Below, one piece after another: positions 3,436 to 58,655 of a DNA stretch of 64,000 nucleotides. The stretch is taken from the NCBI GenBank assembly GCA_017499595.2, contig CM039007.1, forward strand, positions 868,001 through 932,000, read 5' to 3'. The notes under the pieces were generated by a model. The model saw only the letters and a list, made by a program, of their open reading frames with translations, did no database searches and was not told the origin of the DNA. Numbering within the stretch: the first letter of the stretch is position 1; every line of letters starts with the position of its first letter. This DNA comes from Psilocybe cubensis. Its lineage: Eukaryota. A program made the translations under genes and the position numbers.

Positions 3436-4756
3436 TTAAGGATTTGCGTAACCCAAAACCTCTTCATCGCCCGTCAGGACTTCATCAGAGTCAAAATCAC
3501 TACCAGCGAGATCGGAATCAGATATAGTCGAGCTGTCCCCGCGTTCACTGTCCTCCTTCATTGAATCGTCGTCGTCTTGGTTTTCTTTATCACTTTCGTC
3601 TTCAGACATATCCTCGTCCGAATGAATATACCAGCGGTCGAGGTGATTGTAAGTAACCCCACTGGTAGTGAAAAATGCTGGATCGTCTCCTTCGAGCTCG
3701 GCTTGGTCTGAGTCGTCGTCGGACAAGTCGTAATCGTTGGCATACACAGGGGTGTCAGCGTCATCGTCTGAGGCATACCTGCAGTCCATCATATTGGGGC
3801 GGCATATATCCAATTCTCCGCGGAATTTTGGATAGGTAATCCAAATGCCTGGCGATTCTTCTTCAGTGGCCCAGTTACCGGTATCAGGGAGAACGGAAAT
3901 GTCGTCCAGCAAGCTTTCGACGAATTCCCGACCGTCCACATCTGTTTCTTCAAGTCTTACCCGCCTTCCGAGATAGATTTGCCACACATCGTCATCGTTC
4001 ATAGCAGGACCCGAGAACTGGTTGAAGATTTCAGGCGGAATGAATGCCGAAATTCCTTCATGTGGGATGAATACTAGGGAAAATAAAGTACACATCTCGG
4101 GCGTTGCCCCTCGCCGGAGTAGTTCCTTGTATTCCCCTATGCGAGAGGCATAATCTGCAGGTATTTCGATGCCCTCTTCAATTTCCTTTAGCGGTGTGTC
4201 TCCACGAGGAGCAATGTCACGATCAGGATGCTCCAATTGGGACTCCGTCGATGCAAGAATGGAGAATTCGTCCTTTGAAAAGTTAGAACGATAGAGGAAG
4301 CACTGACTAAGTCTTACCTCAAGGACCTGGTGAGGCTTTCCACAAAAATGACAAACGCCATCAGTTACCTCCCCTCCACAAGCCGTGTTTGTGCACAGAT
4401 AGACATCTTCGAATTCCAAGGACTGTATGGGCTCTGGTGGAGCATCATCGTCTGTTTGTTCATCCCCCGTGATCTCGTCCTCGTCGTCCTCGTCGTCCTC
4501 GCCGTCTTCCGAATTCTGTATGCTTTCTTCGGCGCTGTCTTCATCCTGCGAGAGATCTTCGGAGTCATTTTTGGCTAAAAGGTTGGTTATGATCGCTTTC
4601 AGTCTTTTATTTTCCTCATCTTTGCGTTTGAGTTTCTTAAAAGCCAATAAACATCAGGTTAGTCGATGGTTTCCGAAACACCGGCTAGTAGACATTGTCA
4701 CTCACCGAATTGGTTAGAATCAATCTCGCTTGAAGGTCTTTGATATTGGTAGACAT
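3436..4756 (-). CDS. Uncharacterised acidic protein with N-terminal coiled coil and CxxxxC-x8-CxxC motif (paralogue A)
   Basis: Exon 1 MSTNIKDLQARLILTNS joins via a GTGAGT intron to KLKRKDEE; 403-aa ORF with YLCTNTACGGEVTDGVCHFCGKPH; clear paralogue at 5118-7236 with the same intron positions. Confidence 0.8.
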
Positions 4757-5117
4757 AAGAGACGCGTGTAGTTGTCCCAGTATCCTTGATTTGACAACAA
4801 AGGAGGGTTGTCTGAAGATATTAGTGTCGCGCCAAGCAAGCCCCAAATTTACGCGACGTCTTTGATTGGCAACACCGCTGAAAAATAATAACGCGTAGTT
4901 TCCATATCCGTCAACGCTTTCAGGGGTCGTGAAAAGTTAGATGATTCGAAAGGTTGTCGACGCTTAAATGATTGGTACAAGATGTCGCTTTCTGCTCTTC
5001 TTTGCATTCATAAATCTGACTACCACAAAGACTAACTATGAGAATACAATAATGATGTTAACGTAGATTATGTGGAGAACATAATACAGATAAAACTTGG
5101 TGAATTCCTGTACGACT

Positions 5118-7236
5118 CTAAATCATGGTCCCATTACCATTGCCAACTTGAGCAGGGGGGCCTCCAAACTTGATACGGAGAATTTCTTCGTCACCACTGA
5201 ACATTTCATCTGAATGGAAATCACTGCCAGAGTCGGTCATGGTAGTGTGGTCATCGTGATCGTCGTCCCCAGCGAGTTCGTCGAGCTGCTGTTCACCACC
5301 GGAGTCAGATTCCAACATGTCCTCTTCCTCATCTGAAGGGATGTACCAGCGATCCGCATGAAGGTAAGAAATGCCACCGGTTGTGGTATACATCGGTTCC
5401 TCCATTTCGACATCATCTTGCTCCGAGTCGTCGTCTGACAATTCATAATCATTTGATTGATTCGGTGGCACTATATTAGGGGAGGTCAGAGTGGACGATT
5501 CGGAGGCGATTTGCGAACGATTCAGGTCAGGATTCAAGACCGATTCTGACGCAGAAATTTGCTTCCGAAGCGCGATTCACTCTGACCCCCCCATTTCAAA
5601 ACTTCGATTCACCTTCAATTCAGTAGGCGATTCACGGATGGTCTTTGTGCCAACTGATAATAAAAGTTGTTTAAAAGTAGTTTGAGAGAAGGTTTTGTAC
5701 GCACTCAATCGAGCATTTGGATAGATCCTCTCCTTCTGCCTCGTTCTCTATCTCAGAACAATCCGATTCTCCATCCGATGACTCTACAAGCACCTCAGCC
5801 TCCTTCTGTTTGGCCCGCCGTGTAGATTTTGCTTTTTTGGCCTGTGTTTTGGTAGGTTTCTTGGGTAACGTGGTCTTGCTGAGCGATTTTGACGATGCTG
5901 AACGAGTTGTACGGCTCGAATTTTTGGCGGCCATAGTGAGAGCCTCACAGAAAGAGTCTGTGTATCACACCAGCCCTCACGATGATGGAGAAAAATCTTG
6001 ATCATGTCAAGATCAAATATACAATTAGGTAAATTGAAAATAATTAATAAATTAAATACTGCTCGATTCTGCTGAGTAGAATCAAGCTGTTGAATCGTCT
6101 CTGAATCGTCGAAGCGGCGGAGCCGCTTCGACGATTCAGAGACGATTCAGCGATTCGGCGATTCACGTTCTGAGGCGATTCAGCGTCTTCCCACGCTTTT
6201 GATGACCAGAATCGTCTCTGAATCGTGTCGCTGAATCGCCTCCGAATCGTCCACTCTGACCTCCCCTATTTTCGGCTGCGATGTCGACCGAGTCCAAAAT
6301 ATCCCTCGGTTGAGATTCAACCTGCCCGCTATGTTTGGGGTATGTCACCCAAACGCCAGTTTCTTCTTCTTCCGTGACCCAGTTTCCGATGCCAGGGAGA
6401 ACAGATATCTCATCCAGTATACTTTCAATAAATTCATAGCCGTCAATGTCATCTTTGGCGAGAGTCAATCGTCGTCCCAAATAGATTTTCCAGTCGCATT
6501 CGACCATTGAAAGACCAGCGAATTCTTCAAAGAGGTCTTCAGTGACCCTTGCGACGATTCCATTGGTGTAGGTAAATTCAAGTTTAAAAAGTTCGCACAT
6601 TTCTGGGGTCGCGCCCCGGCGGAGAAGTGAGCGGTATTCCCGTGCGCGCGATTCGTACAAGGCAGGAAGTGGAGAATCGTCCTTTGGAATGGATTGCAAG
6701 GGCGTATTTCCTCTGGGGGCCATGCAGCGGTCTGGATGTTCTAGTTGAGACTCTGTTGACGCCATATTCTCATCCTGAGGAGTTTAGGGAACTTAGTTGC
6801 AGCGAGAACTTGCATCGAAGATTTACCTCCATGATTTGATGCTTTTTGCGACATAGAAAGCAGTAACCGTCAGTGACTTCCCCGCCACAGGCCTGGTCAG
6901 AGCAAAGGTAAATATCTTTGCATTCGTAAGATTGCGTAGGTATGGGGAGATCTTCTCCATCATCGTCGTCGGAGTCATCGCCTTCATCATCACTCTCCTC
7001 ATCGTCACCTTTGTCGTCCGAGTCCTCAGTATCCAGATCGTCTTCAGTGGAGTCTTGGTCGGATTCAGACCCGTTGGAAACAATTTTTAAAGCTTTCTTG
7101 AGGCTTTTAATTTCAATCTTTTTTCTTTGCAGTTTCTGGGCCATGTTTTGTTGGCATTTGATTCGAACAAATGGGTGGTACGCACCAATTTCATATTACT
7201 TATTTGAGCTTCCGCGTCTTCTAAAGAGGTGGCCAT
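5118..7236 (-). CDS. Uncharacterised acidic protein, paralogue B, interrupted by a MITE at 5478-6267 (disrupted, or rescued by splicing)
   Basis: Exon 1 MATSLEDAEAQISNMKL|KLQRKK; YLCSDQACGGEVTDGYCFLCRKKH; ASTESQLEHPDR and LLRRGATPEMC shared with paralogue A. The C-terminus NDYELSDDDS...DRWYI resumes in another frame after the insertion. Confidence 0.75.
5478..6267. mobile_element. Non-autonomous TIR element (MITE), possibly PIF/Harbinger-related
   Basis: ~34-bp perfect TIR AGGGGAGGTCAGAGTGGACGATTCGGAGGCGATT at both ends. ATT direct repeat at 5475-5477 and 6268-6270 (or TA, ambiguous). Removing the element restores the host reading frame. Many GATTC/GAATC subterminal motifs. Confidence 0.9.
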
Positions 7237-7654
7237 AGTCCGCGGGAAGGCTAAGGTGGTGTTACGCGCTGTTGAAGTGATGACGGCTTATAAAATTTTG
7301 CAAATGAACGACCACTGTGCGGTTGAATAAAATGTGCCACTGCTAGTAGTAGTCGTAAATTTGTAGAGGTAACGCCTTATAGAACTTGCAAGTGTATGAG
7401 ATACAGATATAGAGTGCAGTCAGACAGAATGAATAAATGCAACCCCTGTCGTAGAACAGGCCGAAAAGATGATATTTTTAAATTTAAGAACGATGAGAAA
7501 GGTTTTGATGCGCCTATTCTGTTTGAAATACAGCCCGTGGAAAAACAACGCGTAAACAATCGAGTGTCACGTGAATATCACTGTCAGAGTTGCCAAGAAA
7601 TTACATGGCAAGGTTCCTTGCGCAATCTTCGCGGCGACACGACCAAGTTCTGCA

Positions 7655-11782: not shown

Positions 11783-14700
11783 ATGACCTCCACCATCGAT
11801 CCGAATACTATTGGCAAACCAGTGCGCCCACGTCGCCATGTCCGCACTCTCACAGGTTAGCGATCTCGTTCATGTTTGGACATTGTCAATCTTGTTTCTG
11901 TCTCACCATCGTGGGCCCATAGGTTATCTTCCTGAGAAAGACGAAGAAGGACGCGATAAATGGCCTAAGGGTGAAGAAAAGGTCTGGAAAGATGGGATGA
12001 GGTCTCTCGATAAGGGTGCGTGCGACAGATCTACGGCGTTGCGAGTGGTTCTCATATTTATGCTGCGATGTGGATAAGATGTCAACGATATCACGCGTTC
12101 TTTTGTGAACCATGTCCAAACCTCTCTGGCCCGTCAACCATACAACATTGGTATGCGCATATATGCTCCATTTTCATCGTTGGAAGCTGAAATTTTAGCA
12201 AAGATGACCTCGGTGCATACCATGCTGCCGCTCTCTCCACACGAGACAATCTTTTGGTAAATTGAGTCTTTTTTGAACGCATATATGTACTCATACTTGC
12301 ATCTCCCACGCCAGGTAAACTGGAACGATACCCAGCTAACATATACTCGCAAAGCCCCTAAACGAGCTTACTATCTTTCACTGGAGTTTTTGATGGGGCG
12401 AACTCTCGATAACGCTGTAAGTTTTGTAACCCCTATCTACTACAGCGCATATATCTCATCGCATCTTAGCTCCTTAACCTGGGGCTTAAAGATGAATATA
12501 AACAAGGTGTCCGCAAGCTCGGATTCAACATTGAAGATATCCTAGAGCAGGAGAGAGACGCCGGTTTAGGAAATGGTGGACTTGGTCGCCTCGCTGCCTG
12601 CTATCTTGACTCTTCCGCCTCTCAAGAGCTTCCTGTCTGGGGTTACGGTCTGCGATACAAGTACGGTATCTTCCAGCAGCTTATTTCTCCCTCAGGAGAC
12701 CAGCTTGAGGTCAGATCCACAATGACGCTTTGAAGTGACGATGTTCTTCTGACATGACATACAGGCTCCTGACCCATGGCTGGACAATCAAAACCCATGG
12801 GAACTCCCCCGTCTTGACGTCACCTATCAAATTAGATTCTACGGACATGCCGACAGACTCGACGATGGAACTGGGCGTGCTTTATGGCAAGGCGGACAGG
12901 AAGTCCTTGCACAGGCGTATGATGTTATGATTCCTGGGTATGGAACCCGGTCGACTAACAACTTGAGGCTCTGGGAAAGCAAACCCAAGCGAGGATTCGA
13001 CTTGAACTCCTTCAATGGTACGCTATTTTCGTGCTGCTGTTGTGTAATCTGGCCTGACTCAATATGTGCCATGTATAGCTGGAAACTACGAAGGAGCTGT
13101 TGAATCGTCCAACAGTGCTCAAGCTATCACCTCTGTTTTGTATCCCAATGATCATACGTAGGTCTTTTTCTTCATTTCAACACTTTTTCTCTGACAAGCA
13201 TATTTTTAGGACATGTACGTTCTCTTGCGTTATAAACATCTGCATTGCAAATCTTGACATTGTGACATCTTACAGTTGGAAAGGAGTTGAGATTGAAGCA
13301 GCAGTAGTACGTGTTCTGGTTTCCGGCAAAGGTGCCATGGCTTATTCTGTCATTAGCTTCTGGACCGCTGCCAGTTTAGCTGACATTTTGCGTCGCTTTA
13401 AGAATCTTAACAAGCATATCCGCGAATTCCCTGACTGTATGTATCATCCTGGAGTGTAGCAATCGTTTCGTACTGAAAACCTTTTTTATAACAGATGTTG
13501 CTATCCAGCTAAACGATGTAAGTGTTTAAAACTATGTTCGAGGCTTCGAGGTGTTCATCTATATCCCTTAAGACCCACCCTACTCTTGCCATTCCTGAAT
13601 TGATGAGAATACTGATCGACGAGGAAGACCTAAGCTGGGATGCTGCCTGGTCCATCGTCACCAACGTTTTCTTCTATACTAACCACACCGTGCTTCCTGT
13701 GAGTTACGCTTTGAATTATGCCTTTCAGCGAATGAACCCATACCTTACAGGAAGCTCTCGAAAAATGGCCTGTGCCTTTGTTGGAGCACGTCCTGCCAAG
13801 GTTTGTATTATTCGCTCCGCTTCCGTATTGTCTTTTTCTCATTCCTTTTCTAGACATATGCAGATCATCTATGATATCGTGAGTCTTCCGTGCACCTATG
13901 TTCGAATGTTAACTCGTCGCTGAATTCTATTTGACAGAATCTGTCCGTCTCCTAATTATTTTACCTTTAGGGGTTATTACTGATAGCTCTCTTATACACT
14001 TAGGTTCTTCCTCCAAGGTATATCTATTGCCTATGAAACCCCGTAGGGCAATGCTGATTCAATGCGCCATTTTAGCTGTTGAGAAAAAGTTCCCTGGAGA
14101 CCGCGACAGGCTCTCAAGGATGTCCCTGATCGAAGGTAAACTGTCTGTTTGCTCTGTCTTCAGCAAAAATCTTACGTTTGCTTCAGAGGGCATCCCAAAA
14201 CAGGTTCGCATGGCGCACCTTGCATGCATTGGCAGTCGCAAAGTAAATGGGGTTGCCGAGGTGGGTTCCGTTCAAAGTCAGGGGTATTTATATACTGAAT
14301 ACGATCCATCACAGTTGCACAGTGAACTCGTTCGAACCACTATCTTAAAAGATTTCGTCGAATTTGAGGGAATCAGCAAGTGAGTCGGTTCAACGTCTGT
14401 TCCATATTATTTTTCTGATGTTGCCTTTTCCTAGATTCGGAAACGTTACCAACGGAAGTTAGTTTAAAAACCACATGTTTTTCTATCATTATTTCGATTC
14501 TGACGCTCTCTACTCCCAGTCACTCCCCGCCGATGGCTCGACCAGGTTGGTAGTGATGACAGACATCTGTATCTTATAAGCATATTAACCAGATTTTAGT
14601 GTAACCCAGAACTCAGCGCCCTCATTTCCAAAACCCTTAAGCTGGACAAGAGCGTGTGGTTGAAAGACCTCACCAAACTTGAAGGCCTGCTTCCATTTAC

Positions 14701-16253: not shown

Positions 16254-16711
16254 TTCCAGAAGGGAGGGGTGAGATATCTTGGGAAATGAAGAATCTTTTT
16301 GAAATAACGGGGTATTGTGTTGGAATTCAGAAGTGGTGGAGTCTTCAGGGATACCCTGAAGAATCGGGATATGGGAGAACAAAAGAATGTATGTTTTACA
16401 GATTTGTATGTAGGAATACACTTGAGCCACTTGAGCCACGGGGGTTTAACTGCTTTGGCAGTTTGCAGTTGTAAGTGAACTATGTTTATGTTTGATGGAT
16501 TTGAGATGAGATTGTGAGACTTCAGAGTACTGAGTGCCTTTTCTGAGCCGTTGTAATGCTGAAGGCCTGAAATACCGCTATGAGCGGCGTCTTAGGGTGC
16601 GTGAGGGCTCCTTTGGTCTTCTAACCAGTTGAATACAAGACCCGGAGGTTAAAGTTGAACGCTGGGCTATAGCCCGATATGCCATTGCTAATAAACTACC
16701 TACTTTACATA

Positions 16712-19203
16712 CTACTTACGAGACACGAGATAATTGATTTTTCGGGGCGGCCACATTCTGCTTTGGTTGTTTGTCATTGCTGTGGGAGAAATCAAGATGT
16801 CAGAATCTCCTGGTTCGGCAATGCCATGCCTGAAGAAAGAAGAATATTAGAAGGGATTTCGAAATGGATGCATCAGACTTACTCCTTCCATACGTGTTCA
16901 TTAAGAGTAGCACCGCACTCTTCCTTTCTGCAATGGGCACAAACCATCGAAATATTGTTTGCGTACATGCGACCGTTATCGCTGTCTATGCACCTTCTTG
17001 CTACAATCTCATCTTCCCCAGTAAGCAATTCATAGTTGCACACGGACCCCAATCCGGGGAGTAATTGTCGATCATGTGCAATGCGATGTTCATCCTAAAA
17101 GTGAATCCCCCCGAATCAGACCAGCGAAATTGTCAAGTGATGGCTACACCTACCAGAATATTCCACCTTAAAACACAGCGTCCCTTAATGAGACTGTTGC
17201 AAGATACACATTCGAATATCGGATCAGCTGCATCCATCTCCTCAGAGGTAGTCACGGCCGGATCAAATCCAAACTGCTCGAGAATGTCCGCCATGGCTCG
17301 CATGCGATCTTTGTTGAAATATATACCGTTTTCGTCGTTCCAAATCGTGCTCCTGGTATGATGTGAAAGTGATCGACGTTCCAACTCGTCCAGTGCCTTT
17401 TCAGCACTAATATATGGTTCATATGGAATACCATGATAATGGGCCAGGACATTAGGATACCGCAAGTGGTCGCTACGGCACGTTTTGCATGAGAAGATAG
17501 TTGTTGCCAGTCGAAGCACGCTGCTTTCGTCAAAATTATATGTAGTGCCACAGGCTGATTTGATCAGGCTTATAAGCTTCCCTTCCATCTGGGTCCGCCA
17601 CTCATGGGAAATTTGTGCGTAATTGACACGCAGGGGATCGAGGTGCGCCGAAGTGAAAGGTTCTAATGATGTGTCGTCTATTAGGTCTCGCACCAGCTGT
17701 ACCTTAAACAAATCCGCTGCAGAGGGAGTCGGAGTGTACAGCGAATACTGCGCTGCACATTCTTTGGCGACTTTGGATAATATTGGCAGCCGATTTTCCA
17801 GAAACACCCTGCGATCGGCTTGCAGTCTTAACACGCGGGACTCGCTCATCAATACATTGAGGTCCGGACCCATGGAAATCAATACTTGTTTAAGCATAAA
17901 TTAGTACTTTCAAAGCAGTTTGTTAGGCATTGCGCACCTGTATCAGTCAATTCATTGCAGCATGCATCATAAATTTGAGGTATATCAAAAAGATCTTCGT
18001 AACCGTCTTCGCTCATAAGAGAGAGCTCGGGTTCCCATCCTAGTGATTTTAAGTGGGCGACAAGCCTGTCAATTATTCCAAAGGTGTTAGTGTCCTGGTG
18101 TATGGGTGTAGAAGATCTTCTCACCTTGATTGACGACGAAGAAACAAGTTATCCTCTCTTTCGTTTTCGTCCCATGTCTTGTAGATGGCAGCATGCTTAA
18201 CGAGTTATACCTTAGCTCAAGGGTCTCTGACAAAAATATCAGGCTTACCGTTTCTATGTTGTTCAATTCTTTAATTTTGTCAGTCATCCAACTTGCCGGG
18301 TTTACTGACAAGGAACATTCTCTCTTCCACTTTTTTCCAGTTTCAAGTAAGTAGTACGACCTGTAGGCTGGGTACCGTAAGTTGTATGCACTGAACAGGA
18401 CTCAACACGGCTTACAATGGTCCTTGTACGGCAAGAGAACTCTGGGAAGGTATGGTATCAACTCCATGGGGCATGTCATCTGTACCTGCGCATCTGTTGA
18501 TAATTGCCCACGGATCATCACGAATCTAGTCATATCAAATAAGGATACAGATTCAGGAAAAACTTCAATCATATACGCGCCTGTATTGTATACACGGCAC
18601 ACAAGCTCGAACTCTTGCCGCAAAAACGGTGATCGGTGCTCTGTTGTCTGCGCCAACGAACCTTCCGCAGTACTGTAGAACAGGTCATTAGACAGAAAGA
18701 TGGAAATTAAACGCTAAGGAATACCCACTTGACACTTCTTACCAAATGCCAAATTCGTATACTGGATGTCCGTTAAATCTGGTGGACAGTCTGGCATCCC
18801 AATAAGCTCCCTGGAGGCTTTCCACAGAGTCGGCGCCACGTCTGAGCTCTTCAGAATATGTCGAAAATGTATTGAAGTGCACGATAGGTGCCATAAATCT
18901 TTCGGCTCTAAATCTGTGCAGATCTGATAGAGCAGGCAAACATAAGAGGTGTATAGCGCGGCTACGGGAAGAATTTCTGACCTCAAATGCCAATATTTCT
19001 ACGGGGAGCCCACCCAGAGAATTCGCGGAGTATACAGAGGTCTCGTTCAACTCATTTGCTGGCGTTCTCATTTTCTTCGGTTCTCTTCCTTCATTCAAGA
19101 CGTCAACATTGGTGTCCTGACTAGATCGCGACCGCTTTACGGTCGCGTCTCTATTAGTAGTTGATGATGAAGAGTTGTCGACGGTAGAATGGAGTTCAGG
19201 CAT
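16712..19203 (-). CDS. F-box protein of an Agaricomycete-expanded family (copy 1)
   Basis: LGGLPVEILAFE|ICTDLEPKDLWHLSCTSIHFRHIL (F-box), PDCPPDLTDIQYTNLAFG, Cys/His clusters; collinear with the paralogue at 31910-34447. Confidence 0.85.
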
Positions 19204-19394
19204 TTCGACTGGGGAGAAAACAAGAAAGAATGCTACGAGTTCACCGTGTTGTGCTTTATAAAGACCAATTTCAACCAACGGTGCCCTCCAAGTGATGGGA
19301 GGCCCATCAGGGCCAGATTTGATGGGCCGAGCGGAAGCAATAAATATTAGATACTCTCTAGTCAAAGGTTTAGATGATTTTAAAACCCGCAAGT

Positions 19395-19601
19395 TTACGA
19401 ATAGAAGTTTCTGACCTCAAATACCAATATTGCTTTGGAAAGTCCGCACAGAGAGTTCTTCTCTAGAGAGGCATTGCTTGCAACCCCGTTCAACCTTTTT
19501 GTTGGCTTCCCCTTTTTCTTCGGTGGGTTCTCTGCATTCAAGTCATCTACATTGGTGCGACGATGTTGAAGAGTTCTAATAGTAGGTCGGTGTGATCCCA
19601 A
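19395..19601 (-). pseudogene. 5' fragment of an F-box gene (exon 1 plus start of intron 1)
   Basis: TNVDDLNAENPPKKKGKPTKRLNGVA...NSLCGLSKAILVFE|gtcaga matches exon 1 of the intact F-box genes; no downstream exons follow. Confidence 0.75.
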
Positions 19602-20033: not shown

Positions 20034-21810
20034 AAGCTTTTATCCACTCAGAAAGTCCTTTACCCATGGTCAGCGTTTCCGATGCGGTGTATCCGACCTG
20101 AGGCTCCTGTTCAACTCATTTGTCTTGCTTGACACTGAATTTTGGGAAGATTACACTGATCACCCTTTTCCATCAACGGGTGCCAGTGTGCAAATCATGT
20201 AGGATAAAGGGTCTGTTCTATATGTTTTTTTCTCCCCTTCTCCTCGCATTTGTGTTCTCAGACACCAAAAAGCTGTCTCTAAAGCCGACTTCTCCGCATG
20301 TGGTACGCCAATCCGCTGTTGGATTCCCGTGGACACACGCTATCTCCTTTGCACAGCAACGCGTGTGATTCTGCACCAGCACTCGAGGAGTGCTCGTGTC
20401 AGAATCAGCGTTATCAGATGGATAACGATCTTTCGAAGCTTCGCTGTCTTCTGCAGACACGTCCGGGCCTGTACAGATTGTGCCAAAAAGCGTAAATAGT
20501 TGGAAAACCGACACTCTCGGGCACAGCAACGGTGACACATGTCGTGCACGGATGTGATAGAAGTCCAGAGCAGCATGCGTCGCCGTCCTTCAACTATTTT
20601 CCTTTTCGAGCATAATGGTATGTTTTATAAAGGGCTGTGCTGCAGCCTTGAATTACCAACAACCTCATCCTTTCCCTTGCAGCATTCTCCCAGGTGAGTC
20701 GATCTCGCACTACGATTAGCATCGCAGAGCTCATCGCTGGATGCAGAATACGGGGTGCAGTTCAGTCCACACGGACGATCTGCAGGTGAGCTTTTACGAC
20801 ATTGCGTTGATCCGCGCATTCGCTGACTCGTTCAATTACTTTAGGCTGCATGCTGCATATTCATCCTCTTCGTCAACGAGTGGAGGATGTCTGCTACCTG
20901 GCGCAATAGCTGGGTAGCAAAGCCAGTTGGTTGCGCAACGCGACCAATTGGATGTTTCGTACTGACCTGCCTCTAATCGAGGCAAGGACACACAGACGAT
21001 GGAGCGGCGCCAACTAGCCGCCGCTCCTCGTCGACGTTTGGAAATGTGAGTGGTTGATTCTAAATCGATTGCGTCTTGATCTGACCTGTTTGTAGGCTAC
21101 TGCTATGCCGTTTATATGCCCACATGATATGCTCAAAACAACAGTCCCGTTATCGTCTAACTCGACGAGGGACATGGTCCTATTGCTTGATGCTCGATGT
21201 CTTGATACCTGAATTACTGGCCTGCAGCCGCTCCATTCGGAGATAGCTGGGCGAACGCTGTCTGGTCTGCACTTGGTCTCTTGGTCTCTTGGTCTCGTTT
21301 GTCTGTGTCTCGATATTTGTCCCTGCCTGCAGCCGCTCCTCCAAACGGAGATTGCTGGGCAAAGCTGCTCGTTCCCACATCTACTCGATCTTGTCGCTCC
21401 TTTGAAAAGCGAGGGAGCGGCCGGACGGTAAAGGCTGCCTACCGCATCACCGCGGCCGCAGCAGTAATTTTTTTCTCCAAGAGTGGAGGGGTTCCGACCT
21501 CCATCGTGCATGCCTTGTCGTGGCCTTGGAGCTTGAACACTTTCCATCGGTTGCATTGATTGTGACCGGTGGAGGTTGACCAAATGCACACAAAAAAAAC
21601 AGGAATCGGTAAGATCACATAGTCATTGTCTAGTTTGATAAGTATTTGCCTTTGTATCTAAACTCACTTTCAATAAAAATATATCTACAACTATACGCTA
21701 CATCATAAATGTTAAACAATTGAGTTCTTCACTTAGAATGTTAAATTTGTCACTCTTATGTAAACTATACTAGTGGTTACAAAACATGCTGAATACTACC
21801 GAGTTCGAGA
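20034..21810 (+). repeat. Copy A of a ~1.75-kb inverted repeat; probably carries a spliced non-coding transcript on +
   Basis: Reverse complement of 36792-38549. By eye ~97% identical over 20041-20340, near-identical over 21096-21590, decaying beyond ~21600. Six or seven GT-AG intron-like segments. Confidence 0.92.
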
Positions 21811-31500: not shown

Positions 31501-31909
31501 TCTGTGAGAGACCCGAGACTAATAAGCGGAGCTTTCAAGAAATTTGTTTGTTAATTAGTTCTGTACTTGAATTTCGTTGCTCTAAGCCGATGGTAATATT
31601 CACGTAAACTTAGTTATGTCTGAATATAGAGTACCGAGTTCGAGTTATGAGTACTGCCCGGTTCCACCATACCCACGAAGGTGTTTGTTTTGGTAGTGGT
31701 GTAAAGTTCTATTCATGGTTGATTGACAGACAAGTTAACGGTCTCACATTACCTTACAAGTCGTTGGCGTTGAACGTTGAACATTGGACTGGTCACTGGT
31801 CCCAGGCTAAAACACAACGTAATGTTAAACGAAGCCATTCCAAAGCTTATTTCTAAACAAGTTTTTTTAACCGTTTCCTGTTAGTTTGTAAAAACAATTC
31901 AAACAAAAA

Positions 31910-34447
31910 CTAAACTGTTGGAGCCCAACGTGATACGGCATAATTAATTTTTTGAGGTGGCCACATTCTACTGTGGTTGATTGTCTTTGCTGCGGGAGAA
32001 GGCAACATGTCAGAATCGGCGAGCTCGGCAATGCCATGCCTAAAAAGTAAAGAGAGTTAGAAGGGATTTCGAAATGGATACATCATACATGACTTACTCC
32101 TGCCAGGCGTGTTCGGCAATCATGGTACTGCTCCCTATTTTTCTACAATGCGAGCAAACCATAGAATCGAGAGTGTTTGCTTGTCTGCGACCATTGTCCT
32201 CGTCTAAGCACCTCTTCGCTGCGATCTCGTCGTTCCCACTCAGCAGTTCATATGTGAGCGGCATTTTACCAGTCCTAAAGTGGCGCTTGTGTCCCCATTG
32301 ATGTCGTGCCTACAAGCCCCCGCGTGAGACCTGTAAAGTCATCAAATCTTGTCTAAACTTACCAACATGTTCCACCTTAAAACGTAGCGTCCTCTGTGCG
32401 AGCAGTTGCAAAATACGCATTCGAATATTGGATCAGCTGCGTCCATTTCCTCAGAGGTAGTCACCGCCGGATCAAATCCAAAATGCTCGAGAATGTCCGC
32501 CATGGCTTGCATATAATCTTTGTTAAAAAATATATCGTTGTCGTCGTTCCAAAACGTGCTCCCAGTACGAATCTCAAGTGATCGACGTTCCAATTCGACA
32601 AGATCCTCTTCGGCGCGACGATTTTGATCAAATGGAATAGAATGGTAATGAGCCAGGACTTGGGGATACCAGAAATTATCTTTGGTTACACTGTGGCTGT
32701 CTTTGCACTTTGTGCATGAGAAAATGGTTGTCGCCAGTCGAAGCACGCTGCTTTCGTCAAACTTATACTCGGTGCCACAAGCCGATTTGATCATGCTGAC
32801 AAGCTTCCCTTCCGTGCGAGTCCGCCAATCCAGGGAGATTTCTGCGTAGTTGAGGCGCAGGGGATCGAGGTGCGCCGAAGTGAAAGGTTCCAATGATGTG
32901 TCGTCTATTAGGTCTCGCACCAGCTGTACCTTCAACAATTCCGCTGCAGAAGGAGTCGGAGTGTCCACTGGATATCGCGCCGCACATTCTTTGGTGACCT
33001 CGGATAATATTGGCAGTCGGTTTCCCAGTAAAGCCTTGCGATCGGCGCACAGTCTTAGCGTGCGGTACTGGGTCATCGATGTATTGATAAACGCTCCCAT
33101 GTCATTTAGCACTGAATTAAATCTAGATTAATACTTTCAAAGTAGTTCGGTAGATATCGCGTACTAGTATCAGTCATTGAGTTATTTTTGCATGCATCAA
33201 CAATTCGGGGTGATTTGAGAAAATTTTGGTAATTTTCTCTGCTCATCTTAGAGAGCTCGGATGTCCATCCTAGCGATTTGATTTGGGCGATGACCCTATA
33301 AATTATTCCAAAGGCGTTAGAGTCCTGGAATATGGATGTAGAAGATCTCCGCACCTTGCCAGGCGACGACGAAACAAATTATTATGCCTTTGTTTCGCGT
33401 CCCAATCTTTGTATATGGTGCTATGCTTAATGTGTTTTAAGTGAGTAAAAGGTGTACCGACGAAGATGTCAGGCTTACATACCTCTTCTATATATTTCAA
33501 TTCTTCAATTTTTTCCTTCATCCATTTCGCCTGATTTTCCGCCGCGGCACATTCTCTCTTCCAAGTTTCCCCTGTTGCAACTGAATAGTACATTTTTTTC
33601 TCTGGATACCGTCAGCTACAAGTAATTACCAGGACTCCAAACGGTTCACCATAGTTTGTGTAAGACAAGAGAACGCTGGGCAGGTACGGGACCAGTATCT
33701 TCGGGCATTTTTTCTGTACTCGCGGATCCATTGAGACCTGACCGGGGCCCTCAACCATTACGAATCTAATGACATAATCAGGAGACAGACACGGTGATTA
33801 TTGTTTAAACGATACACGCCTAGATCTTATACATGGCACGCAGGCTCGAATTCTTGCCGCGAAAAGGGTGAGTGGTCGTCTGTTGTCTTCGCCAACGAAC
33901 TTTTGACAGTACTGTAGAGAAGGTAATTAGATAGCAAACTGGTTAAAGTTTAGAAATACCGACCTGACAACTCTCACCAAATGCCAAGTTCGTATACTGG
34001 ATATCTGTTAAATCTGATGGACAATCTGGCATTCCGATTAACGCCCTCGAAGCTTTCCAAAGAGTCGGCGCTAAGTCCGAGCTCTTCAGAATACGTCGAA
34101 AATGCTTTGAAGTGCAAGATAAGTGCCATAAATCCTTTGGTTCTAAATCTGTGCAGATCTGATGGAGTGGGTAAGAATCTGCACGTTTACGAATAGGAGT
34201 TTCTGACCTCAAATGCCCATATCTCTACTGGGAGGCCACCCAGAGAATTCTCCACAGTTTTTGCCTTCGCTACCGACTTCTTGGGCACCTTTCTCTTCTT
34301 CTTCTTCGGTGGGCTCTCTTCACCGTCGTCGTCAACATTGGAGTCCATAGTTCGCGACCGCTTCGTCGCGTCTCTAGTACTTTTCACGGCTGACGCTGAA
34401 TGTTCAACGGCAGAAGGTACAGCTTTGCGATTACGCAGTGTAGGCAT
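31910..34447 (-). CDS. F-box protein (copy 2)
   Basis: MPTLRNRK...LGGLPVEIWAFE|ICTDLEPKDLWHLSCTSKHFRRIL; same exon structure as copy 1; last exon HGIAELADSD...RMWPPQKINYAVSRWAPTV*. Confidence 0.85.
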
Positions 34448-34840
34448 CTTGGAGGAAAGACTAGACTGATTCTCTTGTCGTGGTTCAAATTCAAGAGCAA
34501 TTTCAACCAACTGTGCCACTCCAAGCGATGGGAGGCCGTGCGCGTGATGTGCCACTGAGCGGAGGCAATAAAAGACTTCATTGGCAAGTTGCGTTCGGCA
34601 CGCCTTGAGAGAAAATTCAACGAGAATGAGATATTGATAATGATAGAGGTTTGTTTTCTATTGGATACATTTCGTTCTCCCTTTCCAAGGGGGTTAAAAC
34701 ATTATTTTGGTCGTAAGCTCTAGATATGTCATAAGGTAGGCGATACAAATACAATTTCCGTGGAGAAAGCGAAGGCGAAGGTGAAGTCGAAAGCAAAAAA
34801 GAGGTCCGATTGAAAAGCGAAGGTGTGTAGAAACTGATTC

Positions 34841-36791: not shown

Positions 36792-38549
36792 ATCTTGAAC
36801 TCGGCTGGTCCAGCATGCGTTGAAACCACTAATAAATTTTAATCTTTCAAGTGAAAAAATTGTTCGACACAAATCACGATTTAGGTGAATAAATGTAGAG
36901 TTATATTCATTGAAGGTGAGATTAGATACAAAAGCACATAATTATAAAACTACACAATGACTATATGATCTTACCAATTCCTATTTTTTTTGTGTGCATT
37001 TGGTCAACTTCCACCGGTCACAATCAATGCAACCAATGAAAAGTGTTCAAGCTCCAAGGCCACGACAAGGCATGCACGATGGAGGTCGGAACCCCTCCAC
37101 TCTTGGAGAAAAAAATTACTGCTGCGGCCGCGGTGATGCGGTAGGCAGCCTTTACCGTCCGGCCGCTCCCTCGCTTTTCAAAGGAGCGACAAGATCGAGT
37201 AGATGTGGGAACGAGCAGCTTTGCCCAGCAATCTCCGTTTGGAGGAGCGGCTGCAGGCAGGGACAAATATCGAGACACAGACAAACGAGACCAAGAGACC
37301 AAGAGACCAAGTGCAGACCAGACAGCGTTCGCCCAGCTATCTCCGAATGGAGCGGCTGCAGGCCAGTAATTCAGGTATCAAGACATCGAGCATCAAGCAA
37401 TAGGACCATGTCCCTCGTCGAGTTAGACGATAACGGGACTGTTGTTTTGAGCATATCATGTGGGCATATAAACGGCATAGCAGTAGCCTATGAATATGTC
37501 AGACCAAGAGGCAATCGATTTAGAATCAACCACTCACATTTCCAAACGTCGACGAGGAGCGGCGGCTAATTGGCGCCGCTCCGTCGTCTGCATGTCTTTG
37601 CCTCGATTAGAGGCAGGTCAGCACGAAACGTCCAATTGGTCGCGTTGCGCAACCAACTGGCTTTGCTACCCAGCTATTGCGCCAGGTAGCAGACATCCTC
37701 CACTCGTTGACGAGGAGGATGAATATGCAGCATGCAGCCTAAGGTAATTGAACGAGTCAGCGAATGCGCGGATCGACGCAATGTCGTGAAAGCTCACCTG
37801 CAGATCATCCGTGTGGACTGAACTGCACCCCGTATTCTGCATCCAGCGATGAGCTCTGTGATGTTGATCGTAGTGCGAGATCGACTCACCTGGGAGAATG
37901 CTGCAAAGGAAAGAATGAGGTTGTTAGTGGTTCAAGGCTGCAGCACGGTCCTTTATAAAACATACCATTATGCTCAAAAAGGAAAATAATTGAAGAACGT
38001 CGACGCATGCTGCTCAGGACTTCTATCACGTCCACGCACGACATGTGTCACCGTTGCTGTGCCCGAGAGTGTCGGTTTTCCAACTATTTACGCTTTTTGG
38101 CACAATCTGTACAGGCCCAACCGTGTCTGCAGAAGACAGCGAAGCTTCGAAAGATCGTTATCCATCTGATAACGCTGATTCTGACACGAGCACTCCTCGA
38201 GTGCTGGTGCAGAATCACACGCGTTGCTGTGCAAAGGAGATAGCGTGCGTCCACGGGAACCCAACAGCGGATTGGCGTACCACATGCGGAGAAGTCGGCT
38301 TTAGAGAAAGCTTTTTGGTGTCTAAGAACACAAATGTGAGGAGAAGGGGAGGAAAAAACATATAGAACAGACCCTTTATCCTCCATGATTTGCACACTGG
38401 CACCCGTTGATGGAAAAGGGTGATCAGTGTAATCTTCCCAAAATTCAGTGTCAAGCAAGACAAATTAGTTGAACAGGAGCCTCAGGTCGGATACACCTCA
38501 TCGGAAACGCTGACCATGGGTAAAGGACTTTCTGAGTGGATAAAAGCTT
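36792..38549 (-). repeat. Copy B of the ~1.75-kb inverted repeat
   Basis: Reverse complement of 20034-21810; the ORF track shows mirrored near-identical ORFs (191, 106, 92, 82, 78 aa). Confidence 0.92.
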
Positions 38550-40951: not shown

Positions 40952-41413
40952 GTACCTAAATCGGCAGGCGATGTTCTTCATCTGAAAGAAAGGATTCTTC
41001 ATGGGTCAAGAATACAAAGGGGAATAAGGTCATTGTTTATTTAGCGGTGTATAATTTATTAGAAACATATTTCCAAGGTCTGATGCAAGCAGAAAGTCCC
41101 GTCCGCAAACTGTAAGGTTCGCCGAACCTTGAAGCTTGAACGTCGAACCGCGAACCGCGAGCCTTGAGGCGCAAACATTGATTATTGAACAGCGAACAGC
41201 GAACCACAAACTTGTTTGTAAAGAACCAAAGAAAGCAGCACAATTTTATAGTTTACCTTTTGTTCTGTTCATTCTCGGGCGCTCTTGCCATTTATTGTTA
41301 TTTCTCCGCAGTTCTACTGCAGCTTTACTCCTTGTTTCATAGTTCTTATTATGGATGTACAGTAATAGTGCACGCATACAAAATGTGTGCTTTCGTTCTC
41401 TTCGAACCTCAGT

Positions 41414-42757
41414 ATGGCTGCCCAAGTGGGGAAATATTCCCCGTAAACTTATTTAGGTATTTTTCTTACTGCGTGAATTTGTAAAAAAAAAGTTGGAGCG
41501 CGGAAACATTTTTTGAGTGCGCAGATTGTTTTCTAGCTTAGCCGTAAATATATTTGATTGCGCGGAAACATATTTTGGACATATTTTGCTAGCGCACGTA
41601 AATTTTTACTGCCCTCAATTATATTTAATGCATAAATCCTATGCGCGTAAAAACATTTTAAGCCCCAAACAATATTTCGATGCGCGGAAAACATTGTTCA
41701 ATTGCACTATTTCTAGCCTAAAGTGACCAGCCGTTATGCCGAGATCATGTAAAATGATCTAAAATGGCACCTCGGCACACTAAAACGAGTTCAAGCTCCG
41801 ATAGTTCTACCGCTATTCTATTTATTAGGACAATATAACAATTTCTATAGTACTTTCTATGTAATATTAGCCCATTTCCAGTGGCTTTGTGGTGTCCCCA
41901 TTAGCAGTGCAGCTTGTGCACCATTTCAGACATCTCTAGCATTGTGTGAAAACCCCATCAACCGTGGGAAAGGCATCAATCAGTGCATTCTTGAGCGCAT
42001 CTGTGCATTGGTAGAGTCGGAAATGGGAAAATAGTATTAAAAAAGCATGGTGAGATATGTATTACATAGAAATCTATGAGAATAAGTCAAAATATCATTC
42101 ACAACTACTGTTCACAAAAGCAAAATATCAGCAACGGCCGTCACAATTGCGCATCAGTGGCTGTGCAAGAAAGCGACACTTCACGTTCAAGGCGATTTCA
42201 AGGCAATTATCTCACATTCTTTGATTAAAGCAACATTAATACATTTCAAAAGAGTATATATTATATATAGTAATCAATTTGTAATTAAATGAATGTGGGT
42301 TAGCATTGCATTACAGAATCCTCGATATTTTCTTCAAAAATCCAAAAGGTGGAGCTTGAATTCGTTTCACTGTGCCGAGGTGCCATTTTAGATCATTTTA
42401 CATAATCTCGGCATAACGGCTGGTCACTTTAGGCTAGAAATAGTGCAGTTGAACAATGTTTTCCGCGCATCGAAAGATTTGTTTGCGGCATAAAATGTAT
42501 CTACGCGCATAGTGTTTATGCATTAAATATAATTGAGGGCAGTAGAAATTTATGTGCGCTAGCAAAATATGTCCAAAATATGTTTCTGCGCAGTCAAATA
42601 TGTTTCTGCGCGGTCAAATATATTTACGGCTAAGCTAGAAAACAATCTGCGCACTCAAAAAATGTTTCCGTGCTCCAACTTTTTTTTTACAAATTCACGC
42701 AGTAAGAAAAATACCTAAATAAGTTTACGGGGAATATTTCCCCACTTGGGCAGCCAT
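41414..42757. mobile_element. Foldback-type non-autonomous element with ~390-bp TIRs
   Basis: 41414-41799 is the reverse complement of 42351-42757. Flanked by ACCTCAGT at 41406-41413 and 42758-42765. ~550-bp non-coding spacer; repeated GCGCGGAAACA motifs in the arms. Confidence 0.92.
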
Positions 42758-42852
42758 ACCTCAGTCGTTCTGCTCGAACAACGACTGAGCTCGCTACCAG
42801 TTTTCTTACATTTATTTCAAACAGAGAAAGAAAAAATCCTCGATGTCGAAAA

Positions 42853-58024: not shown

Positions 58025-58655
58025 GAGGACAGGTGGTTTGCGAAAAAAAAAGGCGCGGACTGTCCGCCAGACTGTCTGCCGGACTGTCCGCCGGACTTAT
58101 AGGCCTTACAGTGAGCCAGCGTGACCTGGGTTAGTGACAGCCGTGCTCACTGTGTTCCACAGCGACCACTGGCAGTGCCCCTCCCCAACAACTACCACCC
58201 TCCACCTCCAAGCTGACCTTGAGGATGGTCACCATTGTTTCAGCTTTGTAGATTTTTGCTCTTTATATTACAATTTTTTTCCTATAGAAGTACATACTGT
58301 CTCTGTCTCAATGACTGCGTTGGTGTAGTAAATGAAGCGCCCGAATAACAGCTTGCTTGACGTTGATGTTGAGCCAGCCAATATTCAAAAAAAGCCGCAA
58401 TGTGCCAAACAAATTCTCACGCGTTATGCAGCAGTTTAAATGTGCTACCAACAATGCGTGCGCTGTGTAGCGCATCAGACGGTGGGGCATTGTTGGGAAA
58501 TGAGCTCGCTGTCTAGGGCAGTGACCATGCAAGTGAATCCCCCGACGTGGCCTGGAGGTCACACTATGGTCACAAATACCCACCATATACCCAGTGTCCG
58601 GCGGACAGTCCGCCAGACAGTCCGCGCAAAAAAATCTCGTGGACGAACCTTTCTG
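58025..58655. mobile_element. Non-autonomous hAT-like MITE
   Basis: 8-bp direct repeat CATGAGGC at 58017-58024 and 58656-58663. Inverted subterminal arrays of GGACTGTCCGCC-like units start at the same distance from both ends (GCGCGGAC ends at nt 36 on each side). Confidence 0.7.

Follow-up and report, generated by a model that had tools for sequence, protein, structure and literature searches.

The 64-kb window analyzed here (the whole stretch of Psilocybe cubensis DNA, whose positions are used throughout) carries a minus-strand DUF8191 gene, and a 790-bp element (5478-6267) lies within the last coding exon of this gene. The host gene is one of two tandem DUF8191 paralogues, and its annotated model JR316_0010577 has an identical twin at locus 0010449. 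The family assignment (PF26609, DUF8191) was taken from the precomputed table of the protein collection; a scan of the local Pfam copy returned 0 families for the proteins P0001, P0003 and P0008 and for the C-terminal segment of the gene, and a literature search found no paper on DUF8191.

The exon structure was read from contig joints in several sets of assembled reads. Contigs of sets X10 and X11 carry a GT..AG-type joint from 6773 to 6826 that is missing from sets X5 and X7, which identifies X10 and X11 as RNA. The following parts of the host gene were defined:

7186-7236, minus strand: probable true first coding exon (MATSLEDAEAQISNMKL), resembling the N-termini of P0003 and P0004; RNA contigs cover 7186-7300
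7136-7185, minus strand: intron of 50 nts, GTGCGT..CAG; joint in X10
6827-7135, minus strand: exon 2 (KLQRKK...HQIME), from contig joints and the letters
6775-6826, minus strand: intron of 52 nts, GTAAAT..CAG; joint in X10 and X11, absent from X5 and X7
6271-6774, minus strand: last exon, part upstream of the insertion; 100% match to JR316_0010577, start set at 6774 by the RNA joint
5121-5474, minus strand: last exon, part downstream of the insertion; 118 codons encoding the conserved acidic C-terminus, with the stop codon at 5118-5120

The paralogues and orthologues P0003, P0002 and P0004 have C-termini to which the downstream C-terminal segment can be aligned. The public annotation departs from this structure. 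Its start codon falls inside the RNA-supported intron 7136-7185, and it splits the gene in two, one model ending at 6163 and the next restarting within the element; the models that restart there and continue into the host C-terminus are P0007 (235 aa), P0006, P0009 and P0010. A contig of 3.08 Mb contains the same three gene models in two places (0010447-49 and 0010575-77).

Structure of the element and of its insertion site

The element and the sequences at its borders comprise the following features:

5478-6267, minus strand: non-autonomous inverted-repeat transposon, delimited by its perfect terminal repeats and by empty-site contigs that skip 793 nts (790 plus 3)
6268-6270: second copy of the target-site duplication, read on the minus strand as the Asn codon of ..AEN
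6234-6267: host-upstream arm of the terminal inverted repeat; GAG/GTCAGA on the minus strand (6263-6255, the slash marking the putative splice junction)
6163-6165, minus strand: first in-frame stop met on reading through into the element, which is the end of the annotated protein JR316_0010577 (P0001, 309 aa)
6091-6149: perfect palindrome with 28-nt arms in the subterminal region
5705-5934, minus strand: interior ORF, first coding exon (MAAKNSS...), from the ORF list
5654-5704, minus strand: interior ORF intron of 51 nts, GT..AG; joint from 5653 to 5705 in RNA-like contigs of X10, in agreement with the sequence of P0008
5632-5653, minus strand: interior ORF, second coding exon including the stop codon, from the sequence of P0008 and the letters
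5478-5511: host-downstream arm of the terminal inverted repeat; its minus strand contains CTGAC (5489-5485) and then CCTCCCCT
5475-5477: first copy of the target-site duplication (plus strand ATT, minus strand AAT), from the empty-site joint and the letters

The inverted repeat is perfect over 35 nts (5477-5511 and 6234-6268), 34 of which belong to the element. Its 23-nt terminus is present at two places in the 64 kb, both of them ends of the element (0.00 expected from shuffles), and a 19-nt terminus is likewise confined to the two ends. These searches revealed no further copy in the window, and scanning metagenomes for the 23-nt terminus gave 0 matches. GTCAG and CTGAC being reverse complements, the same signals are present whichever way the element is oriented. 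The motif GAATCG/CGATTC is enriched in the subterminal regions, 19 of its 52 occurrences in the window falling inside the element.

The interior ORF has the same orientation as the host gene, and its spliced form corresponds to JR316_0007805 (P0008), a protein of 83 aa annotated on another contig. This product gave no Pfam family in the local scan and no usable Atlas match, and a search of 1.84 billion representatives revealed no relative beyond Psilocybe cubensis. The longest ORF inside the element is 120 aa, and both the ORF lengths and searches with the 83-aa product indicate that a transposase gene is absent. Set against the usual MITE limit of under about 600-800 bp, the element measures 790 bp and has a small gene inside; it is a non-autonomous TIR DNA transposon that may be counted as a MITE in the broad sense.

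The sequence-only reading of this locus had called for comparison with empty-site alleles, and this comparison revealed a clean empty site in contigs of three runs from three studies: X5 (a 789-nt contig), X7 (2883 nts) and the RNA-like set X11 (311 nts). All three join 5473 to 6267, a skip of 793 nts with a joint ambiguity of 4 nts; a 3-bp duplication, ATT, therefore surrounds an element of 790 bp. A TA duplication was also considered and was rejected, as it predicts a difference of 790 nts from the empty site whereas 793 nts were observed; the TA duplication expected of a Tc1/mariner-type (Stowaway-like) element is thus not found here. PIF/Harbinger-type (Tourist-like) MITEs generate 3-bp duplications of the form TWA; the length fits that of the present duplication, and the sequence is ATT/AAT, not TTA/TAA. 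Because the skip in X11 equals exactly that of the DNA sets X5 and X7, it is not the result of splicing and the X11 strain has the empty allele. At the insertion site the RNA sets thus consist of X11, in which a contig of the empty allele crosses the site, and X10, which has no contig across it; a joint between 5470 and 6261 is seen in neither of them, which for these reasons carries no information on splicing of the filled allele. The insertion is polymorphic between strains, and other strains carry the intact exon and express it. The filled stretch is represented in four further contig sets, which contain 0.93-0.94 of its sampled words and may be the source study; the allele state of sets X1-X4, X6 and X8 is deduced from the shares of sampled words that they contain.

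The termini are present in multiple copies. In X5 their depth is 273-357 compared to 35 for single-copy sequence (about 8-10 times), and in X7 it is 93-194 compared to 22 (about 4-9 times). Loose contig ends at 5473-5477 and 6266-6271 enter unlike flanks, as expected of copies at different loci, and internally deleted variants were found in both sets (5592 joined to 6246 in X5 and 5637 joined to 5797 in X7). RNA contigs from another strain cover 135 and 161 nts of the element interior with 0 differences; this identity and the perfect terminal repeats indicate that the insertion is recent. The element represents a small, active DNA transposon family of Psilocybe cubensis that was previously undescribed, and a literature search for miniature inverted-repeat elements of Psilocybe found no relevant paper.

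Splice-like motifs at the element ends

From the letters it had been proposed that the element could be removed in frame as an intron, with its terminal repeat providing both a splice donor and a branch site. The candidate is the following:

5471-6260, minus strand: candidate intron of 790 nts; GT at 6260-6259, AG at 5472-5471 in the host flank, defined by the frame check

The description of its two ends was accurate. On the minus strand the entering end reads AAT AGG GGA G/GTCAGA (6270-6255) and the exiting end CTGACCTCCCCTAATATAG/TGCCACCG (5489-5463), the branch A (5486) being located 15 nts before the G of the AG (5471). Removal of 6260 to 5471 yields ..AENRGVPPN.., in frame to the stop codon at 5118-5120, and the ancestral AEN-I-VPPN, initially deduced from the filled allele, is now observed in the empty-site contigs of the three runs. 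A stop-free frame is restored by 31 of the 70 GT..AG pairs around the element, so frame restoration by itself is unremarkable; the acceptor at 5470 is the only one among the pairs with a CTRAY motif 8-40 nts upstream. The AG belongs to a host ATAG, 4 nts beyond the duplication and therefore outside both element and duplication. The systematic supply of splice sites by the element or its duplication, which is the mark of an introner, is thus not seen at this acceptor.

The same donor, GAG/GTCAGA, had also been reported in genuine introns of the window. This was verified by homology for glycogen phosphorylase, where it opens the intron 12710-12764 and the exons align end to end on 4bqe_A and 1ygp_A; for the three F-box paralogues its use is probable. 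The motif GAGGTCAGA is found 6 times in the window compared to 0.57 expected. Of the six, two belong to the ends of the element itself and three to F-box paralogues (family D8), which leaves about two independent occurrences and hence no clear excess. A de novo intron scan returned 308 candidate donors of near-uniform composition, too noisy to profile donor hexamers.

Two properties of the candidate intron are unfavorable to its removal. Firstly, the minimum-energy and centroid RNA folds both pair 6268-6234 with 5477-5511 (-325 kcal/mol, z = -10.8), and the predicted perfect helix of 35 bp would enclose donor and branch site, paired to each other. U1 could nevertheless bind the donor co-transcriptionally, before the partner arm is made. 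Secondly, the five verified introns are 50, 51, 52, 55 and 58 nts long (the 58-nt intron by reading), and the candidate is about 14 times their length.

RNA from other copies of the element was also considered. At other loci, at least four RNA contigs run through element ends without splicing; X11 contains a 1217-nt RNA contig across an element end at a depth of 148.6, and a 138-nt terminal RNA contig of X10 has a depth of 403 compared to about 8 for the host gene. The contigs are strandless, and those keeping element ends could derive from untranslated regions or from antisense transcripts. Genic copies elsewhere were sought with two element-derived peptides against the protein collection; these searches, which covered proteins of 129-412 and 169-541 aa in one reading frame each, returned only the models of this locus (1/2 and 1/4 candidates).

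Origin and consequences of the insertion

We consider that the locus is best explained, with a probability of about 0.65, by a recent, polymorphic insertion of a non-autonomous TIR transposon that disrupts the DUF8191 gene and is spliced from at most a minority of transcripts. A cut-and-paste transposon would have entered the last coding exon of one DUF8191 paralogue very recently and duplicated ATT, the element belonging to a multi-copy family that includes deletion derivatives and is transcribed at other loci. In a carrier strain, the default would be read-through to the stop located 103 nts inside the element; this would remove the conserved 118-residue acidic C-terminus and leave a null or hypomorphic allele. 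The loss may be buffered by the neighboring paralogue and also, if there is one, by an intact allele in the second nucleus. The donor-like and branch-like motifs would both stem from GTCAG in the terminal repeat, the reverse complement CTGAC corresponding to the fungal branch consensus, and a chance host ATAG 7 nts past the element would complete a plausible in-frame intron of 790 nts that a minority of transcripts, at most, might use. Efficient splicing is doubted because the AG lies in the host flank, because donor and branch site are paired in the predicted helix, because the verified introns are 50-58 nts long compared to 790 nts and because RNA contigs from other loci keep the element ends. 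The two public gene models add to this doubt with little weight: the annotation is unreliable here, its start codon lying in an RNA-supported intron, so that a missing long-intron model counts for little.

An accidental intronisation restricted to this locus, in which a substantial share of transcripts would be spliced from the 6260 donor to the host AG at 5471 and a near-neutral replacement of Ile by Arg-Gly would result, is possible but unlikely. The frame is restored and no stop is created, the donor is of a type used in a verified intron, a pyrimidine run separates CTGAC from the AG 15 nts away, and the candidate pair is the best-looking of the 31 that restore the frame. The intact downstream ORF would also agree with splicing, but it counts for nothing here, as too little time has passed since the insertion for the ORF to decay. 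The predicted pairing of donor and branch site within the 35-bp perfect helix and the length of 790 nts, compared to 50-58 nts for verified introns, both speak against this explanation, and the functional internal intron and other same-strand sites within the element could compete with the long one.

A more general proposal is that the element is a nascent introner of a mushroom-forming basidiomycete: whichever way the element lies, GTCAG/CTGAC would provide a 5' splice site as well as a branch site with a pyrimidine run, the first AG met in the host sequence would serve as acceptor for any insertion into an exon, and roughly one third of the insertions would be in frame and nearly harmless. 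We regard this as improbable.

That a new chimeric gene has formed, with the promoter of the element's small ORF driving a transcript through the terminal repeat into the host C-terminus (compare JR316_0010576/0010448), appears very improbable. The interior ORF is indeed transcribed and spliced in another strain (joint from 5653 to 5705), and the four public models P0006, P0007, P0009 and P0010 fuse it with the host C-terminus. The predicted introns of these models, however, disagree with each other and with the RNA-supported intron, and with the latter the interior ORF ends at the stop codon 5632-5634.

We give very little credence to a family-level introner, that is, to a terminal repeat whose donor and branch site are adapted for making introns either way and to many spliced exon copies in Psilocybe genes. 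The reverse complementarity of GTCAG and CTGAC, which offers the same signals in both orientations, would suit such an adaptation. One survey describes introners that stem from inverted-repeat DNA transposons as common and mentions them, without particulars in its main text, for basidiomycetes too (PMC12130899), and both the recruitment of splice sites from the neighboring exon and the addition of a few codons are described as known (PMC9860276). The element, however, has no AG of its own, and the frame would be kept in only about a third of insertions, with host residues lost each time. In addition, element ends are kept in RNA contigs from other loci, the element-derived peptides match only the models of this locus and the 64-kb window contains one copy only. 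Finally, an assembly artefact, with the insertion existing in no real genome, is scarcely credible: the duplicated trio 0010447-49/0010575-77 hints at assembly duplication, but the clean 3-bp duplication with its matching empty site is the signature of true transposition, and in four further contig sets the filled stretch is represented by 0.93-0.94 of its sampled words.

Relation to known elements and introners

Purugganan and Wessler reportedly described, in Genetica in 1992, exon insertions of maize Ds, dSpm and Mu that are spliced out through cryptic sites in their termini. As in these maize cases, a transposon located in an exon has termini that mimic splice signals, and a slightly altered protein could retain part of its function; the maize cases rest on cDNA, whereas splicing is predicted here. 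Among fungal MITEs, mimp of Fusarium and Guest of Neurospora have TA duplications and are mobilised by Tc1/mariner/pogo transposases. The present element resembles them in being a small, multi-copy, non-autonomous inverted-repeat element that is polymorphic between strains. It differs from them by its 3-bp ATT duplication and by its small expressed ORF with an intron of its own.

Introners derived from MITE-like DNA transposons have been described in Micromonas, Aureococcus, dinoflagellates and others (PMC9860276; PMC12130899; PMC11282704). As far as these accounts go, the resemblance lies in a short non-autonomous TIR element with a 3-bp duplication in a coding exon and in a splice signal located within a terminal sequence of the element. 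Few nucleotides would be added to the predicted mRNA here, as with the Aureococcus introners, for which a gain of 12 nts is given (PMC9860276; PMC12130899; PMC11282704), and a variant that borrows a splice site from the neighboring exon is among those described (PMC9860276). In contrast to introners, splicing is predicted here, one genic copy is known and RNA contigs keep the ends of other copies; moreover the AG is of host origin, outside element and duplication alike, and the candidate measures 790 nts compared to 50-58 nts for verified introns. Two introner surveys do not mention Psilocybe in their main texts (PMC9860276, PMC12130899); their species lists are placed in supplementary datasets. 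For the nonconventional introns of euglenids, pairing of terminal inverted repeats is described as bringing the intron ends together (PMC11282704). The idea that paired inverted ends juxtapose both junctions is shared with the present case; the euglenid introns, as presented there, have non-canonical junctions and another excision route, whereas the helix predicted here would cover a spliceosomal donor and a branch site.

As documented, the locus is a case in which a presence/absence polymorphism of a small transposon splits a gene and misleads the public annotation into two models. If transcripts of carrier strains were spliced at the predicted junction, it would offer a dated and allele-resolved case of intron formation from an exon insertion in a fungus with short introns. 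As filled and empty alleles are both present in cultivated strains, the early steps of intron gain would then be experimentally tractable.

Empty and filled alleles of the JR316_0010577 last exon

The minus-strand translation of 6271-6768 is 100% identical to JR316_0010577, named a DUF8191 protein in the protein collection. Four contig sets from other sequencing runs (X5, X7, X10 and X11) were aligned to 4800-7300. X5 and X7 are genome-sized; the 52-nt intron joint of this gene is present in X10 and X11 and absent from X5 and X7, which identifies X10 and X11 as RNA.

Structure of the host gene JR316_0010577
7236-7186, minus strand: probable exon 1 (MATSLEDAEAQISNMKL)
7185..7136, minus strand: intron 1, 50 nt; joint 7135->7186 in RNA-like contigs
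7135-6827, minus strand: exon 2
6826..6775, minus strand: intron 2, 52 nt; joint in RNA-like contigs
6774 onwards, minus strand: last exon, interrupted by the element

The public start codon (ATG 7144-7142) falls within the RNA-supported 50-nt intron. The true start is likely the ATG at 7236, and the paralogue and the P. cyanescens relative have N-termini similar to the one read from there. Just upstream of the element the host frame codes ..DIAAEN, and reading through into the element meets a stop at 6163-6165, the exact end of the public 309-aa model. Downstream of the element, host positions 5474-5121 encode 118 residues (IVPPNQSNDYELSDDD...). In alignments they correspond to the acidic C-terminus conserved in the tandem paralogue JR316_0010575 (window 3436-4653) and in relatives from P. 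cyanescens and one other assembly. A second set of annotated loci on the same 3.08-Mb contig, JR316_0010447-49, lies about 128 gene numbers from JR316_0010575-77 (window 3436-7236) and encodes identical proteins. The assembly contains this block twice, insertion included; the cause is a recent segmental duplication or else one introduced by the assembly.

The sequence-only reading had deduced a pre-insertion AEN-I-VPP and called for a comparison with empty-site alleles. Such an allele, 793 nt shorter and reading ..GAA AAT ATA GTG.. as deduced, was found in X5, X7 and X11. Its joint, 5473->6267 (a 793-nt skip with 4 ambiguous letters), is carried by a 789-nt contig in X5 (depth 35), a 2883-nt contig in X7 (depth 22) and a 311-nt contig in X11, whose RNA shows the empty allele transcribed as a continuous exon. 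Contigs of X10 RNA flank the site (5260-5444 and 6301-6474) with none across, the second showing empty-haplotype differences. Differences at 6331, 6360 and 6376 are common to all four sets, and the filled allele is on its own haplotype. A TA duplication (788 + 2), also implicit in the repeat finder output, was ruled out by the 793-nt difference, which gives a symmetric solution of a 790-bp element (5478-6267) plus an ATT duplication. It is certain that the insertion is genuine, recent and polymorphic between strains, and that it brought a member of a new family of small DNA transposons into a coding exon; the empty allele and the target duplication have both been identified.

The element and its family

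The element ends read A-GGGG...CCCC-T, with ATT flanks at 5475-5477 and 6268-6270, and a perfect 35-nt inverted repeat spans 5477-5511 and 6234-6268. Inside the element lie a perfect palindrome with 28-nt arms (6091-6149) and 19 of the 52 window occurrences of GAATCG/CGATTC. The window holds a single copy, since sensitive blastn of the element against it (31 rows) gave 13 matches outside the element, all of 28 nt or less, and the 23-nt and 19-nt termini have no other occurrence in 64 kb (0.00-0.01 expected). No transposase was found in the element, which is therefore non-autonomous.

A small ORF starts at 5934 in the interior (window 5632-5934, minus). The X10 RNA joint 5653->5705 removes from it a 51-nt intron (GT..AG on the minus strand), giving exactly the 83-aa JR316_0007805, annotated on another contig; the ORF is thus transcribed and spliced in another strain. 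Its product, basic and then acidic, has no Pfam family, no Atlas match and no relative outside Psilocybe cubensis among 1.84 billion representatives (1 match).

In the DNA contigs the terminal ~150 nt reach about 8-10x (X5) and 4-9x (X7) single-copy depth, and the interior about 1-3x. Loose contig ends at 5473-5477 and 6266-6271 lead into several unlike flanks. Variants include an X5 deletion (joint 5592->6246, a 653-nt internal skip) and an X7 form that has 34 other letters in place of 159 nt (joint 5637->5797). In the RNA-like sets the summed depth of the terminal ~140 nt (6131-6268) is 403-507 (X10) and 81-149 (X11), the host gene being at ~8, so the family ends belong to abundant RNAs at other loci.

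Other repeats were observed in the window. A second MITE-like element (58051-58629, ~580 bp), unrelated in sequence, has 32-nt imperfect inverted ends (GGCGCGGACTGTCCGCC...) and A-runs on both sides. An F-box-type gene block is duplicated (16700-19560 and 31900-34520; ~15.2-kb spacing, 72-86% identity), two copies of a 1661-nt segment lie in opposite orientations at 96% (20034-21694 and 36889-38549), and nested inverted repeats of 164 nt (98%), 129 nt (95%) and 127 nt (91%) at 41412-42759 build a nearly palindromic structure of ~1.35 kb.

Splice-like ends and the host transcript

The intron proposed from sequence has its donor in the upstream terminal repeat, its branch motif in the downstream one and its AG in the host flank. 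All three signals are present: GAG|GTCAGA at 6263-6255, CTGAC at 5489-5485 followed by CCTCCCCT, and AG at 5472-5471, 15 nt past the branch A. Removal of 6260..5471 (790 nt) gives ..AENRGVPPN.. with the frame open to the normal stop. Frame restoration alone is weak evidence, since 31 of 70 GT..AG pairs near the element restore a stop-free frame; among the pairs enumerated around it, a branch motif accompanies just one acceptor, that at 5470.

We favor the reading that the insertion disrupts the gene and that its ends resemble splice signals as a side effect of the repeat sequence (probability about 0.65). Partial in-frame splicing at the locus is possible, at perhaps one chance in five. This donor type is genuinely used in the genome: as had been noted, a 55-nt glycogen phosphorylase intron starts with GAG|GTCAGA, and is required by the end-to-end alignment of exons 12470-12709 and 12765-13100 on plant and yeast phosphorylase chains. 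For the F-box introns, also put forward, a 58-nt intron of the same kind is plausible in the F-box copies. GAGGTCAGA occurs 6 times in the window (0.57 expected), an excess that falls to ~2 independent cases because 2 are the element's own ends and 3 are paralogous copies.

Against efficient splicing, the acceptor AG belongs to the host flank and lies 4 nt outside the duplication; the element brings a donor and a branch site and no acceptor. The suggestion that terminal-repeat pairing joins the ends agrees with the predicted RNA fold of 6300-5441 (860 nt; -325 kcal/mol, shuffles -237 +/- 8), in which the minimum-energy and centroid structures alike join 6268-6234 to 5477-5511 as an unbroken helix. 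This predicted helix would also base-pair the donor itself to the branch site, and the available text of two reports describes less splicing when either signal is sequestered in a stem (PMC2794156, PMC2275289); donor binding during transcription could escape it. Furthermore, the five introns verified in the window measure 50-58 nt against 790 nt, and the candidate intron contains the functional 51-nt intron and other same-strand sites. RNA contigs from other loci also continue past the element ends into unrelated sequence, with X10 showing loose ends at 5473, 6270 and 6271 and X11 one at 6270. One 1217-nt contig in X11 has depth 148.6, and the terminal 138-nt contig in X10 has depth 403 versus ~8 for the host gene; contigs carry no strand, and part of these RNAs could represent untranslated regions or antisense transcripts. 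The locus is split, not bridged, in four public gene models, which weighs little since the same annotation misplaces the start codon.

Relation to introners

Introners are transposons that turn into introns on insertion; in the available text of two surveys, inverted-repeat DNA transposons make up ~82% of the families classified, the element, its duplication or the adjacent exon can each provide splice sites, and the gain of a few codons is possible (PMC9860276, PMC12130899). This makes the proposed mechanism one variant of a known introner mode and no new category. Its distinctive feature would be one palindromic motif able to provide both the donor and the branch site whichever way round the element lies, which the available text of both surveys does not state. 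There, the 2022 survey gives pezizomycotina as the sole terrestrial group with introners (PMC9860276), and basidiomycetes are mentioned, with no further detail, in the main text of the 2025 survey (PMC12130899). The element is not placed among introners: removal from mRNA defines the class, and splicing here is predicted. A true introner family is unlikely. The element contains no acceptor; the outcome of exon insertions would hinge on the position of the next host AG; they would be in frame about one third of the time, with host residues lost.
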